From: Rubrobacter sp.
GTDB taxonomy: Bacteria > Actinomycetota > Rubrobacteria > Rubrobacterales > Rubrobacteraceae
NCBI GenBank assembly: GCA_035563475.1
Contig: DATMVF010000105.1
Span: 1-56,222 of the forward strand
Direction: 5' to 3'
Length of the DNA stretch: 56,222 nucleotides
Part shown: positions 3,607 through 43,720 of the stretch, in pieces
Numbering within the stretch: position 1 is the first letter of the stretch
Layout of the letters: each line of letters begins with the position of its first letter
Position numbers and translations under genes: made by a program
Notes under the pieces: model-generated
Databases searched by the model: none
Told to the model about the DNA's origin: nothing
The model's input: the letters and a program-made list of their open reading frames with translations, nothing else

Positions 3607-3820
3607 AAGCTGGTCAGCAAGTCAGCACGCCGCCCGGCTTCGCCGGACGGCTTGTCAGCTAGTCAGCCTCGCTGTGGATAGCGACGGGAAAGTGCTCTGG
3701 AGAAGCGTTGTCTAGGGAGGGTTGGTCCGCAGCCGCGCACGGGTGACGAACCGAGATGCTGACAAGCTGAAATGCTGACGAGCGAAGGCCGCAAGGCCTG
3801 AGCGTGCTGAAATGCTAAGC
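3607..3820. repeat. octamer-array palindromic element, copy A
   Basis: Left arm of (N)NNTCAGC units with hairpin gccgcccggcttcgccggacggc; ~90-nt core; right arm of NGCTGANN units with hairpin aggccgcaaggcct. Confidence 0.8.
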
Positions 3821-5107: not shown

Positions 5108-5240
5108 CCCTCACAGCATCCTGTTGTCGGCGACGCTCTTGGGCTACGTGTTCTTCCAAAACTTCACCCACCGTCAGGCGGCGATCCGCACAGGTATCGT
5201 CCCACCCCGAATCGCCATTTCAGCTATAGGCGAAAACAAC

Positions 5241-5309
5241 AAGCTGTTAAGCTGACGTGCTGACGAGCGAAGCCCGAAGGGCTCAGCGTGCTGACTAGCT
5301 GAAATGCTT
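5241..5309. repeat. octamer-array element, right arm, copy B
   Basis: aagctgacgtgctgacga-gcgaagcccgaagggctcagc-gtgctgactagctgaaatgctt directly upstream of the proS SD. Confidence 0.75.
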
Positions 5310-6758: not shown

Positions 6759-6962
6759 CAGCATTTCAGCACGCCGCCCGGCTGCGCCAGGCGGCTTGTC
6801 AGCATTTCAGCCAGTCAGCTAGGTGGAGTGTACTGGGACGCTCGTGCGCCCGAGATAATGCCCGAGGAGCATTTACTCCAAGAGAGTCTGCTTTCGACTA
6901 CAAGACCTGAAGTGCTGACAAGCGGAGGCGAAGCCGGTGCGGGCTGAAATGCTGAATTGCTT
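6759..6962. repeat. octamer-array palindromic element, copy C
   Basis: Starts immediately after the proS TGA; cagcatttcagc and gctgaaatgctg are exact reverse complements; hairpin module nearly identical to copy A; ~88-nt core. Confidence 0.8.
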
Positions 6963-8157: not shown

Positions 8158-8284
8158 ACCCGCATCGAGAGCGGCGGAGGGAACTGGCCCCGAGAAACCG
8201 CGGCAACCCACGGGGAGCTGTGAGCTACTCCCGCAAGGTGCCAAGTCCAGCAGGACGGTCATTACCATCCTGGAAGATGTGGGG
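8158..8284 (+). ncRNA. SAM-I (S-box) riboswitch
   Basis: P1 cccgcATC...GATgtggg; conserved ATCGAGAG, GGAGGGA-CTGGCCC, GGCAACC, GGTGCCAA-TCC and CAG...CTG elements; lies upstream of metX; downstream hairpin gcctct...agaggc at about 8297-8327. Confidence 0.93.
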
Positions 8285-15157: not shown

Positions 15158-15324
15158 GCTTCAGGCTACAGGCATCAGGCTACAGGCCTCGGTGGTATCA
15201 GCCGCTCTCTGAAGACCATCGAAGACCTCAGTAAATTCTGGCGTCGTCTCCGCCGATGCGCCTGCAAACGGCGGATACGTCACGATCCCCAGTCCTGAAA
15301 CCTGTAGCCTGATGCCTGAAACCT
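15156..15324. repeat. heptamer-array palindromic element
   Basis: Left aggcttc aggctac aggcatc aggctac agg; right cctgaaa cctgtag cctgatg cctgaaa cct (reverse-complement units); ~105-nt core; starts at a TAG stop. Confidence 0.8.
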
Positions 15325-29061: not shown

Positions 29062-29646
29062 ATGACGCGTAAAGGCGAGGCTGAACGAGAGACGGCGGAG
29101 ACGTTCGTCAGGGTGAGCTTGGAGCTCGACGGCGGGGGGGAGGCCGAGGTCGCGACGGGGGTGGGATTTCTGGACCATCTCTTGCACCTGCTCGCCCACC
29201 ACTCCGGCATGGACCTCACGGTGGAGGCCAAGGGCGATACCTGGGTGGATGACCACCACACGGTCGAGGACACGGGACTCGTGCTCGGACGCGCCTTCGA
29301 CGAGGCGCTCGGCGAGAGAAGCTCCATCACGCGCTTCGCCGACGCGAGCGCGCCCCTTATCGAGGCGCTCTCGACGGCCGTCGTCGACCTCGGAGCCAGG
29401 AGCCACCTCACGTGCAATCTCGGCCCGATGCCGGAAAAGATAGGGACCTTCGACGTAGAGCTCTTCCCCGAATTCCTGCGCGCCTTCACCCAGTACGGGC
29501 GCTTTACGCTCCACCTCAACTGCCACTACGGTGAGAACGCCCACCACAAGATAGAGTCGGGTGTCAAGGCGCTGGCCGTCGCCCTGAAGGAAGGCATCGC
29601 CCCGCGCACGGCGGGCAGCGCATCAACGAAAGGAGTTGTCGATTAA
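29062..29646 (+). CDS. hisB: imidazoleglycerol-phosphate dehydratase
   Basis: FLDHLL, DDHHTVED, NAHHKIE and STKGV motifs. Confidence 0.96.
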   Translation: MTRKGEAERETAETFVRVSLELDGGGEAEVATGVGFLDHLLHLLAHHSGMDLTVEAKGDTWVDDHHTVEDTGLVLGRAFDEALGERSSITRFADASAPLIEALSTAVVDLGARSHLTCNLGPMPEKIGTFDVELFPEFLRAFTQYGRFTLHLNCHYGENAHHKIESGVKALAVALKEGIAPRTAGSASTKGVVD

Positions 29647-29867
29647 GCATGTCAGCACGGCGCCTTTGGCGCCTCGTCAGCACGCTTCGTGCCTTTCGGG
29701 CCCTCGCTTGTCAGCTAGTCAGCTTCTTCCGTTCGGGTCTCGCCCGGCAGCGCACGACGAACCGCCACCAGCGGCAGTCGGTTACGACGCTCGTGGAGAG
29801 CCCGCGAAACGACTGGCTGAATTGCTGAGAGCCGCCGACCGGAGGGAGGCGGCGCGCTGACTAGCTT
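29645..29867. mobile_element. octamer-array palindromic element, copy D (MITE/REPIN-like insertion between hisB and hisH)
   Basis: Inverted termini aagcatgtcagc / gctgactagctt; hairpin modules; ~90-nt core; removing it restores AGGAG-ttgtcga-TTGAAC. Confidence 0.7.
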
Positions 29868-30477
29868 GAACGTCGCGATCGTCGACTACGACGCGGGGAA
29901 TACGCTATCCGTCACGCGGGCGCTGGAGAAGGTCGGTGCGAAGGTGGATCTCACGCCCGACCCAGAGCGGGTTCTCGCGGCTGATGCCGTGGTTCTGCCT
30001 GGTGTAGGGGCCTTCGGAGACTGCATGAGGAAACTGCGGGAGCGCGGGATGGACGAAGCGTGCCGCGAAGCGTTCCGGCGAGGGAAACCTTTCCTCGGGG
30101 TTTGCGTCGCGCTGCAGGTGGTCTTCGAGTCCTCCGGGGAGTCACCGGGGGTAGAGGGACTTGGTCTTATGCCGGGGAAGGTGGTGCGCTTCGAGGGCCA
30201 TGGGCTCAAGGTTCCGCACATCGGTTGGAACGAACTGTCCCTGGTGCGGGACCACCCCGTCATCAGCGGTCTCGATGGCGAGGCGTTCTACTTTGTCCAT
30301 TCTTACTACCCCGAACCGGAGGAGAGGCGAGACCTCATCGGCGAGACGGACTACGGCACGCGTTTTTGTTCGGTGGCGGGCAGGGAGAACCTCGTGGCCG
30401 TACAGTTCCATCCCGAGAAAAGCAGCAGGGCGGGACTGAAGCTGTACGGGAACTTCCTGGCCTGGGCAGGGACATAA
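29866..30477 (+). CDS. hisH: imidazole glycerol phosphate synthase glutaminase subunit
   Basis: DYDAGN, LPGVGAF, GVC, VPHIGWN, YFVHSY and QFHPEKS motifs. Confidence 0.95.
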   Translation: MNVAIVDYDAGNTLSVTRALEKVGAKVDLTPDPERVLAADAVVLPGVGAFGDCMRKLRERGMDEACREAFRRGKPFLGVCVALQVVFESSGESPGVEGLGLMPGKVVRFEGHGLKVPHIGWNELSLVRDHPVISGLDGEAFYFVHSYYPEPEERRDLIGETDYGTRFCSVAGRENLVAVQFHPEKSSRAGLKLYGNFLAWAGT

Positions 30478-30481
30478 GGCG

Positions 30482-31087
30482 ATGACGGAAGGAGAACGGG
30501 CATCGGGTGAGGCTTTCCTCCGCGGTCGCCGCGTCTGGCTGCGTCCATTGGAGAGGGTGGATCTCCCACGATACCAGGAGCTTTTCTCCGACCCTGAGAT
30601 CAATCTGTTGTACGGTGGACTGGGTGTGCCGGAAAACCTGGCCAAGCTGCAACGCCACTACGATGCAGGCGAATACGACACGACGGACCGGTTCCTCTTG
30701 CTTGTGATCGAGGCCGAAGGCACCATCATCGGGGCGATAGTGCTGAGGAACACGGAAAACCTCCCGAGCCGCTCGGCGACGTTCGGAATCTTGATCGGGG
30801 ACCCAGCGTACCTGGACCGGGGTTACGGCAGCGAGGCTAGCGCCCTCCTGTTGGACTACGCGTTCGCCGTATTGGGGCATCACAAGATCAACCTCGACCT
30901 TTTCGAGTACAACGCCCGCGCGCAGGCCATGTATGAGAAGCTGGGCTTCGTCGTGGAAGGACGTCGCCGCGAAAACCACTGGTCGCGCGGACGATTCTGG
31001 GACGAAATCCTGATGGGCGTCACCGCCGAAGAGTGGTGGTCGAAACATGGGTCTCCGCGGCTACCCGGTACGGCACCCGCACGCTGA
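30482..31087 (+). CDS. GNAT acetyltransferase (RimJ/RimL/SpeG-like)
   Basis: LRPLE, DRGYGSEA and NARAQAMYEKLGFVVEG motifs. Confidence 0.88.
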   Translation: MTEGERASGEAFLRGRRVWLRPLERVDLPRYQELFSDPEINLLYGGLGVPENLAKLQRHYDAGEYDTTDRFLLLVIEAEGTIIGAIVLRNTENLPSRSATFGILIGDPAYLDRGYGSEASALLLDYAFAVLGHHKINLDLFEYNARAQAMYEKLGFVVEGRRRENHWSRGRFWDEILMGVTAEEWWSKHGSPRLPGTAPAR

Positions 31088-34702: not shown

Positions 34703-34880
34703 GCTAGTCAGCACGCTCAGGGTTCGCCTTCGCTTGTCAGCTAGTCAGCTCGCCGCTTCGCGGCTCTCAGCTATGCGGCCAGGACTTGCGCAAGAGAAAG
34801 CTGACGTGCTGAAGTGCTGACAAGCGCCCGACAGGGCGCGTGCTGAAATGCTGACAAGGCGCGAAGCGCCGGGCTGACAT
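34701..34880. repeat. octamer-array palindromic element, copy E
   Basis: Starts inside the TAA stop (aagctagtcagc); four hairpin modules; right arm agctgacg tgctgaag tgctgaca...tgctgaaa tgctgaca. Confidence 0.8.
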
Positions 34881-36427: not shown

Positions 36428-36491
36428 GGTCAGCGATCAGCCATCAGCGGTCAGCTTCCGGCAAAAGCAGTAGGCTGAAAGCTGACGGCTT
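36428..36491. repeat. short heptamer-array palindromic element
   Basis: ggtcagc gatcagc catcagc ggtcagc ... gctgaaa gctgacg gct. Confidence 0.7.
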
Positions 36492-42865: not shown

Positions 42866-43654
42866 ATGGGCAAAAGATCTGATCGACGTAAGTTCAGGAG
42901 GCGACGCAGGTGGGCCGCGTTCTTAGTGCTTTTGTCGCTTGCCCTCATGGTGTTTGGTGTAACGTTACTGACGGGCTCCCCTGATAAGCAACCGGTTGCC
43001 ACTGATGGGATAGAGAGAGCCGCCGTGGAGAGGGCGGCATCTGTGCAGGTGGCCGGGGCCCCCGAGGCTGCAAGCGAACAGAAGCGGGAAGACGCACAGG
43101 TCCTGGCCTCAGAAGAGGAGGACAAGAAGACCACGGCCGAGAAGAACGAGCCCGCTCAGAAGCCAGAGCCGAAGAAGCGGTCTACGATACCGACGCCGCC
43201 CACGAATGACCTGTGGATGTCCATCCCGGCGCTCGGGCTCTACGACAACTACGTGACCAACTCCGCGGCCGAGTCCGCGATGGATTATGGGGCCATAAAG
43301 TTGCCCCATTCGGGCTTCCCCTGGCAGGACAACGCGAACACCTACATTGCGGCTCACAGGCTAGGGTGGCCCGGTACGGCTAGCCACCATCAGTTCTACA
43401 ATCTGCCGCTTCTGGCCAAGGGGGATGTGATCTACCTCGGCGACGTCAACGGGACTACCTACACTTACGAGGTTACGGAGTTCAAAGAGATAACGCCGGA
43501 TGAAACATGGGTAACGACTCCCAAGCCGGGAAGGGATATGGTCTCGTTGCAGACGTGCATAGAGACCTTCGGTGACTACTGGACGATGGGCCCGAACTGG
43601 TACGTGCGCTACATCGTGCAGGCCGACAGGGTCTCCGTGGACGTCGCGGAGTAA
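42866..43654 (+). CDS. sortase (class D/E-like)
   Basis: N-terminal TM; YIAAHR (His), SLQTC (Cys) and VRYIVQA (Arg). Confidence 0.85.
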   Translation: MGKRSDRRKFRRRRRWAAFLVLLSLALMVFGVTLLTGSPDKQPVATDGIERAAVERAASVQVAGAPEAASEQKREDAQVLASEEEDKKTTAEKNEPAQKPEPKKRSTIPTPPTNDLWMSIPALGLYDNYVTNSAAESAMDYGAIKLPHSGFPWQDNANTYIAAHRLGWPGTASHHQFYNLPLLAKGDVIYLGDVNGTTYTYEVTEFKEITPDETWVTTPKPGRDMVSLQTCIETFGDYWTMGPNWYVRYIVQADRVSVDVAE

Positions 43655-43720
43655 GCGTTTCAGCCCGGCGCCTCTGGTGCCTTGTCAGCACGCTTCGCCT
43701 CGCTTTCAGCATTTCAGCTT
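43653..43720. repeat. octamer-array element, left arm, copy F
   Basis: Starts inside the sortase TAA: aagcgtttcagc-ccggcgcctctggtgcc-ttgtcagcac-gcttcgcctcgc-tttcagcatttcagctt. Confidence 0.75.

Follow-up and report, generated by a model that had tools for sequence, protein, structure and literature searches.

A repeat-armed hairpin within the hisB/hisH overlap of Rubrobacter and its possible bearing on the start of hisH

The hisB and hisH genes of a Rubrobacter sp. are separated by a 223-bp insert that landed in an ancestral 4-nt stop/start overlap and belongs to a genome-wide family of repeat-armed hairpins; we hold this history and this family identity with high confidence. The first-pass annotation of the window (the whole stretch of 56,222 nucleotides that was analysed) had proposed that precise removal of 29645-29867 restores an overlapping junction. 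This is borne out: hisB then ends in GAT TGA and shares 4 nt with the TTG of hisH, and AAAGGAG (29629-29635) lies 7 nt upstream. The similar 4-nt coupling claimed for hisZ and hisG is also present, as an ATGA overlap. Taken alone, the arithmetic of the rebuilt junction is not evidence, because the same operation works at 366 of this genome's 779 co-directional gaps 60-300 nt long (47%). Real support for the ancestral overlap comes from relatives with empty sites: among 49 genomes of other genera, 17 have the 4-nt hisB/hisH overlap predicted for them, 16 with a TTG and one with a CTG start (one stretch of this set lacks hisH). The proposed boundaries of the insert hold as well, with its ends fixed only to within a TT/TTxA micro-repeat, since the cut position slides over six registers. 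No Rfam model matches at the insert, and promoter and terminator scans of 29500-30000 found neither sigma-70 hexamers nor an intrinsic terminator (hairpin with a U run). The layout of the junction is given in Table 1.

Table 1. Features of the hisB/hisH junction (positions in the window)
Feature	Position	Strand	Remarks
hisB, imidazoleglycerol-phosphate dehydratase	29062..29646	+	PF00475; last codons GAT TAA; its stop forms the left micro-repeat of the insert
Ancestral Shine-Dalgarno (SD) AAAGGAG within hisB Lys-Gly-Val codons	29629..29635	+	7 nt before the old TTG position; duplex -9.0 kcal/mol
Left target copy	29643..29646	+	TTAA in this window; empty sites and 11/28 hairpin alleles have TTGA
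Left arm	29647..29723	.	TCAGC words, 8-nt units, branched side hairpins
Loop region	29724..29810	.	common to ~23 other genome places (24 blastn matches including self); no convincing PF05635 remnant
Right arm	29811..29865	.	GCTGA words and a GCCGCC/GGCGGC side hairpin
Internal GGAGGGAGG	29841..29849	+	at other copies, the same module acts as SD for downstream genes
In-frame GCG (-12) and CTG (-9), candidate alternative hisH start	29854..29859	+	-12 codon is ATG/GTG in 26/28 hairpin alleles
59-codon mini-ORF through the insert	29649..29828	+	begins 2 nt past the hisB stop; not conserved; no Pfam match; may serve as a relay
hisH, class I glutamine amidotransferase	29866..30477	+	PF00117; TTG start is the right target copy (TTGA)

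Within the genus, none of the 28 readable junctions is empty (29 alleles were examined, one of which has no hisB end within 900 nt). The full set of 76 alleles comprises 28 hairpins, spread over six genera, 18 junctions with an inserted gene, 17 empty sites, 8 relics, and 5 of other kinds. In two genomes outside the genus, only a 9-nt relic is present, with TTGA repeated on both sides. The inserted gene of ~620-670 nt often overlaps both neighbours, is scattered over the tree (e.g., L012, L013, L161), and from its motif is presumably a HAD hydrolase. The site turns over often, because a hisB tree of the 76 rows needs 38 state changes at the junction, the direction of each change not being given by the tree. 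As for hisH itself (29866-30477), its identity to the comparison genome G008 is 83.5%, at the 5th percentile genome-wide, against 92-96% for its neighbours, which suggests that recombination, with a breakpoint at the insert or close to it, may have brought hisH in. The elements were rejected as general recombination breakpoints: identity to G008 is below 87% in 8 of 167 flanking genes vs 116 of 1114 genes. Between hisH and the next gene, likely hisA, lies a GNAT acetyltransferase gene (30557-31087, ORF from 30482) that is unmatched in the read part of G008.

The insert gives 225 blastn pieces in the genome, and a motif scan finds 194 repeat-armed hairpins with TCAGC/GCTGA or TCAGG/CCTGA arms, against one in a shuffle. 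Their repeat units have either a period of 8 with side hairpins or a period of 7, and the words of the left and right arms agree in 182 of the 194 elements and in 27 of the 28 hisB/hisH hairpin alleles. None of the 194 hairpins lies inside a called ORF, with gene starts taken from our own caller, which prefers starts with an SD and would break up an interrupted gene. The elements keep close to gene ends, as 122 of 229 edges facing a gene end fall within -15 to +10 of the stop vs 15 of 148 for starts (p = 6e-19), and they occupy 57 convergent vs 21 divergent gene pairs, compared with 230 vs 385 among gaps. Their right halves contain 6.8 vs 1.9 stops per 100 nt and are rich in starts too. REP/BIME elements and MITEs (ERIC, Correia) are short, palindromic, modular sequences present in many intergenic copies. 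The present family resembles them in its enrichment after stops and between convergent genes; unlike them, it appears to have no fixed terminal sequence or constant duplication, its module order varies, and Y1 (PF01797)/RAYT transposases have no match in this genome, which, being 92% complete, does not prove their absence.

Other copies of the family in the window lie at 3614-3818, 5216-5309, 6761-6955, 15161-15319, 34703-34854, and 36430-36485, and a left arm stands alone at about 43650-43720. The copy at 3614-3818 ends in an SD-bearing module ahead of a gene read as serS from its N-terminus. More broadly, a terminal module, GACCGAAGGGAG, closes many elements of this genome (e.g., on contigs C8, C33, C202, C216, C231, and C238) and gives the next gene a normally spaced SD; it is a second way in which the hairpin family keeps downstream genes translated. 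A second family of short hairpins, with GGAAGG...CCTTCC and TGCA...TGCA stems that end in CCGCGC, frequently lies directly beside the repeat arms (e.g., C36, C43, C49, C87) and seems to be gained and lost along with them. On contig C63 (11760-12300), an apparent tRNA gene is located between two elements. The window also contains a SAM riboswitch at 8159-8283 (RF00162, 74.2 bits).

The hisB/hisH junction is not the only overlap of this kind. The TTGA overlap of purC/purS is empty in 11 of 12 relatives examined and filled in this genome, while at PHP/AlaX 4 of 5 relatives have an empty overlap and both this genome and G019 a filled one; comparisons of the purC/purS, AlaX, and DUF1537 junctions cover 20 chosen stretches and G008. 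A precise insertion into a 2-nt gap was also found before a gene read as proS from its N-terminus. The SDR/DUF1537-type junction carries four different inserts and is empty in none of the 5 relatives examined, and the YqeY/PhoH junction has no empty site among the relatives compared. At the latter, two genomes (this one in L272 at about 1330-1432, contig C229, and G008 in L057, contig C2) carry different inserts, yet the conserved coding part of the PhoH-like gene that follows yqeY opens in each with an ACG preceded by a well-spaced SD, possibly a non-canonical ACG start. Ninety element sites could be mapped to G008, in a comparison that covered 2.4 of its about 4.3 Mb and left 104 of the 194 sites unmapped: the element there has the other word at 36 sites and the same one at 31, 16 sites lack an element (imprecisely in several cases), and 7 are taken up by other sequence. 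Terminal micro-repeats are of the TT/TGA type at three overlaps and of 0-3 nt, or imprecise, at other empty sites. The hairpins sit precisely in coupled overlaps (hisB/hisH, purC/purS, PHP/AlaX), and their words are often swapped at fixed sites.

The arms of the insert also bear on its likely origin. The same arms flank genes for PF05635 four-helix-bundle proteins in 10 of 12 loci read, three of them with the same branched modules, and the left arm of the insert is 79% identical over 92 nt (E = 1e-16) to the arm flanking the PF05635 gene in L221. The insert is therefore likely a gene-less form of a PF05635-associated hairpin cassette. This assignment is consistent with inverted arms built of 7- or 8-nt tandem words, with arms common to ORF-bearing cassettes, and with a position that starts at a stop codon and is present or absent at orthologous sites. 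Among 101 genomes of the family, 37 have PF05635 genes; none was found in this 92%-complete genome, and neither was a reverse transcriptase gene. The loop was considered as a PF05635 remnant and rejected, as the best tblastn match of PF05635 proteins to any element has an E of 0.015. PF05635-type ORFs are known from 23S rRNA intervening sequences (PMC4990558, in part), and proteins of such four-helix-bundle ORFs resemble Avd of diversity-generating retroelements (PMC10053308, in part). As for the mode of movement, our guess is a homology-guided exchange between copies. At what is apparently the same gnd/zwf junction, L219 and L224 carry PF05635 cassettes with different arm words, this genome having a short gap there; the right arm of the L224 cassette again places an ATG 12 nt ahead of a TTA.

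The right arm also bears on where hisH begins. An in-frame ATG or GTG is located within this arm, 12 nt upstream of the old start, in 26 of the 28 hairpin alleles, and at -15 in one more, i.e., the arm gives an in-frame start in 27 of the 28; some in-frame start is present in all of them. Arms of period 7 and of period 8 both place the ATG at -12 by their structure. In 13 of the 28 alleles, TTG has been lost from the old position, and the arm ATG is there very likely the hisH start; in most relatives, hisH probably starts inside the right arm. The window is the exception, with GCG at -12 (29854), which is possibly an assembly error. In purS, similarly, ATG stands at -12 and TTA at 0. The -12 start need not always come from the hairpin, because it is also found in many alleles carrying the inserted gene.

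In 26 of the 28 hairpin alleles, there is no local SD (-6 kcal/mol or better) at any ATG, GTG, or TTG start. Such a lack is not rare, because by the same cut-off 466 of 779 genes called after gaps have an SD, in start calls that themselves favour SDs. In hisB, GAT is kept in 28 of 28 hairpin alleles and the Gly codon of the SD is GGC in none of them, compared with GGC in 4-7 of 23 genus genomes at other GGG- or GGA-majority Gly columns of hisB, although these alleles are kin and not independent. The hisB SD is not always strong, as 3 of the 17 empty alleles have GGC at this codon. G008 has a canonical anti-SD.

In the predicted fold, the hisB stop pairs with the hisH TTG at the base of the stem. 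End-to-end closure amounts to 13.0 expected pairs vs a mean of 2.4 in 60 shuffles, none of which reaches 13.0, and closure of at least 6 pairs is predicted for 21 of the 28 alleles with short flanks and for 26 of the 28 when the element is folded alone. With 200-nt flanks of naked RNA, closure drops to 0.3 pairs, and the fold of the whole element is not better than that of shuffles (z = -0.79). When a ribosome at the hisB stop was modelled by masking the RNA to 10 nt past this codon, the unpaired probability of the TTG rose from 0.10 to 0.96, and that of the CTG at -9 stayed at 0.0.

It is proposed, at slightly less than an even chance, that the insert stays in the mRNA and that its stem joins the hisB stop to the hisH start, hisH being translationally coupled across the stem. 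The insert, lying inside the ancestral overlap, would be retained in the message, and its folding would bring the hisB stop and the hisH start together at the stem base. A ribosome finishing hisB is predicted to melt the outer stem and free the TTG; next, the same ribosome may restart, or a new 30S subunit may load, via the SD left in hisB. The ribosome step, considered separately, is somewhat more tentative. Loop-out within the mRNA, which the first-pass annotation had suggested, is plausible. The proposal is supported by the closure of the element ends, by the TTG freed by the modelled ribosome, and by the retained SD-like Lys-Gly-Val codons. Against it stand the loss of closure with long naked flanks, the z value, the internal SD and CTG of this window, and the start of most relatives, which lies 12 nt up inside the stem and not at its base.

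The second mechanism to be considered is local initiation of hisH, in which the hisB SD is not needed. The first-pass annotation stated that hisH has no properly spaced SD when the element is present. GGAGGGAGG does lie 16 nt before the TTG, inside a predicted hairpin, but that statement overlooks the CTG at 29857, which is in frame and follows the internal GGAGG at a distance of 7 nt. The SD duplex at this CTG has -12.6 kcal/mol vs -1.7 for the TTG. In this mechanism, hisH of the window would initiate at the CTG, with the stem opened by breathing or by a ribosome on the mini-ORF; relatives would either start at the -12 ATG without an SD or stop and restart among the TGA/ATG words of the right arm. 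We consider this mechanism unlikely. One empty allele does start hisH with CTG, the same module serves as a normal SD for downstream genes at other copies, and the stops and starts abundant in right halves would suit restarting; moreover, in 9 of the 11 alleles with a left TTG, the read-through ORF ends within 17 nt of the -12 start. However, the CTG is predicted to remain paired despite a ribosome at the hisB stop, and the 26 of 28 alleles without a local SD do not fit initiation of the kind available in this window. The relay by a mini-ORF was rejected as a general mechanism, as 11 of the 28 alleles lack a start codon close to the left end.

It is improbable that RNase III cuts the stem without rejoining, which would split the operon message and place the hisH start at or near a new 5' end. 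The arms are the same as those of PF05635 cassettes, an RNase III gene is present in the genome, and the Coxiella intervening sequence is cut within its stem (PMC4990558, in part). Nevertheless, 3x3 loops and side hairpins interrupt the arms of this insert, such cutting leaves the retention of the hisB SD codons unexplained, and a literature search on processed leaderless messages found none.

Still less can be said for a fold without any role, i.e., a tolerated nuisance with leaky hisH initiation, in which the conserved codons reflect recent arrival in ancestors with the overlap. The fast insert turnover given by the 38 state changes and the closure not predicted in long naked RNA would agree with it, but the arm words stay matched, in the hisB/hisH alleles as well as genome-wide, and every hairpin allele has an in-frame start, which makes this explanation very improbable. 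The weakest explanation, hardly credible, is splicing of the insert out of the RNA, with rejoining that restores the overlap, as the first-pass annotation had considered when it spoke of excision. The ancestral junction is regained on clean removal in this window and in 19 of the 28 hairpin alleles. As a general rule, however, splicing is unlikely because the other 9 cannot rebuild it and the elements, unlike what introns could do, never interrupt a called ORF, besides which 47% of ordinary gaps can be rebuilt, the codon at position 0 is not TTG in 13 of 28 alleles with the new start at -12 or -15, and Rfam has no match at the insert.

Several described systems share parts of this arrangement. 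The 23S intervening sequence of Coxiella contains heptamer repeats and a PF05635-type ORF, and RNase III cuts it without rejoining (PMC4990558, in part). The inverted arms of short tandem words closing a stem, as described there, are similar to those of the insert, which differs in lying in an mRNA at a stop/start overlap, in having no PF05635 ORF in its loop, and in its branched 8-nt units. Heptamers of the GGGAATC/GGGGA(C/T)T type in Xanthomonas and Nostoc are intergenic, located near stops and starts, and in Xanthomonas often in inverted pairs (PMC4692102, in part), and the TAACTGA heptamers of Beggiatoaceae are intergenic and often precede starts without an SD (PMC4679880, in part). The hisB/hisH family is likewise intergenic and close to stop and start codons, but it has other words, modular 8-nt units, side hairpins, and shared loops; in the parts of these two descriptions that were compared (PMC4692102; PMC4679880), there is no mention of empty sites in overlaps, start donation, or exchange of words at fixed sites. 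The split ribosome-binding sites of T4 genes 25 and 38, in which loop-out shortens 22-27 nt to 5-11 nt, offer a parallel for a stem between SD and start that would reduce their spacing (PMC3014915, in part), although the gap here is about 230 nt, the start codon itself is in the stem, and the stem is a folding prediction only. Finally, translational coupling can occur by termination-reinitiation or by upstream unfolding (PMC6728339, in part). Like coupled genes described there, the empty junction has a 4-nt overlap and an intragenic SD, and upstream translation is predicted to free the start; unlike them, the filled junction keeps 219 nt of sequence between stop and start, which would come together only through formation of the stem.

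Heptamer repeats between genes, close to stops and to SD-less starts, have thus been described before (PMC4692102; PMC4679880). The openly accessible literature yielded no account of this family in this lineage, of insertion into an overlap, of start donation, or of word exchange at a fixed site. On the sequence comparisons presented here, what is new is the precise placement in overlaps, the swapping of words at fixed sites, and the in-frame start in the right arm, mostly without a local SD.

If we consider the hairpins as selfish inserts that land in stop/start overlaps without breaking the operon, then ribosomes restarting across a closed stem of 100-240 nt would amount to a bacterial ribosome shunt. 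This broader idea is rather doubtful. The left arm would be poor in stops, and the right arm, made of stop-and-start words, would donate a new start; if this is correct, then after decay of the old start, as in 13 of 28 hisH alleles, the host could swap the insert but often not cleanly lose it. For annotation, the finding means that the hisH start of most relatives falls within a repeat. Heptamer-type intergenic repeats have so far not been known to have a function or a mode of spread. In the present family, coupled core junctions (hisB/hisH, purC/purS) occur naturally both empty and filled, in genomes that are 91-96% alike at neighbouring genes, and ribosome restart across a long stem, as well as the exact placement of a repeat hairpin in a stop/start overlap, are thereby testable.
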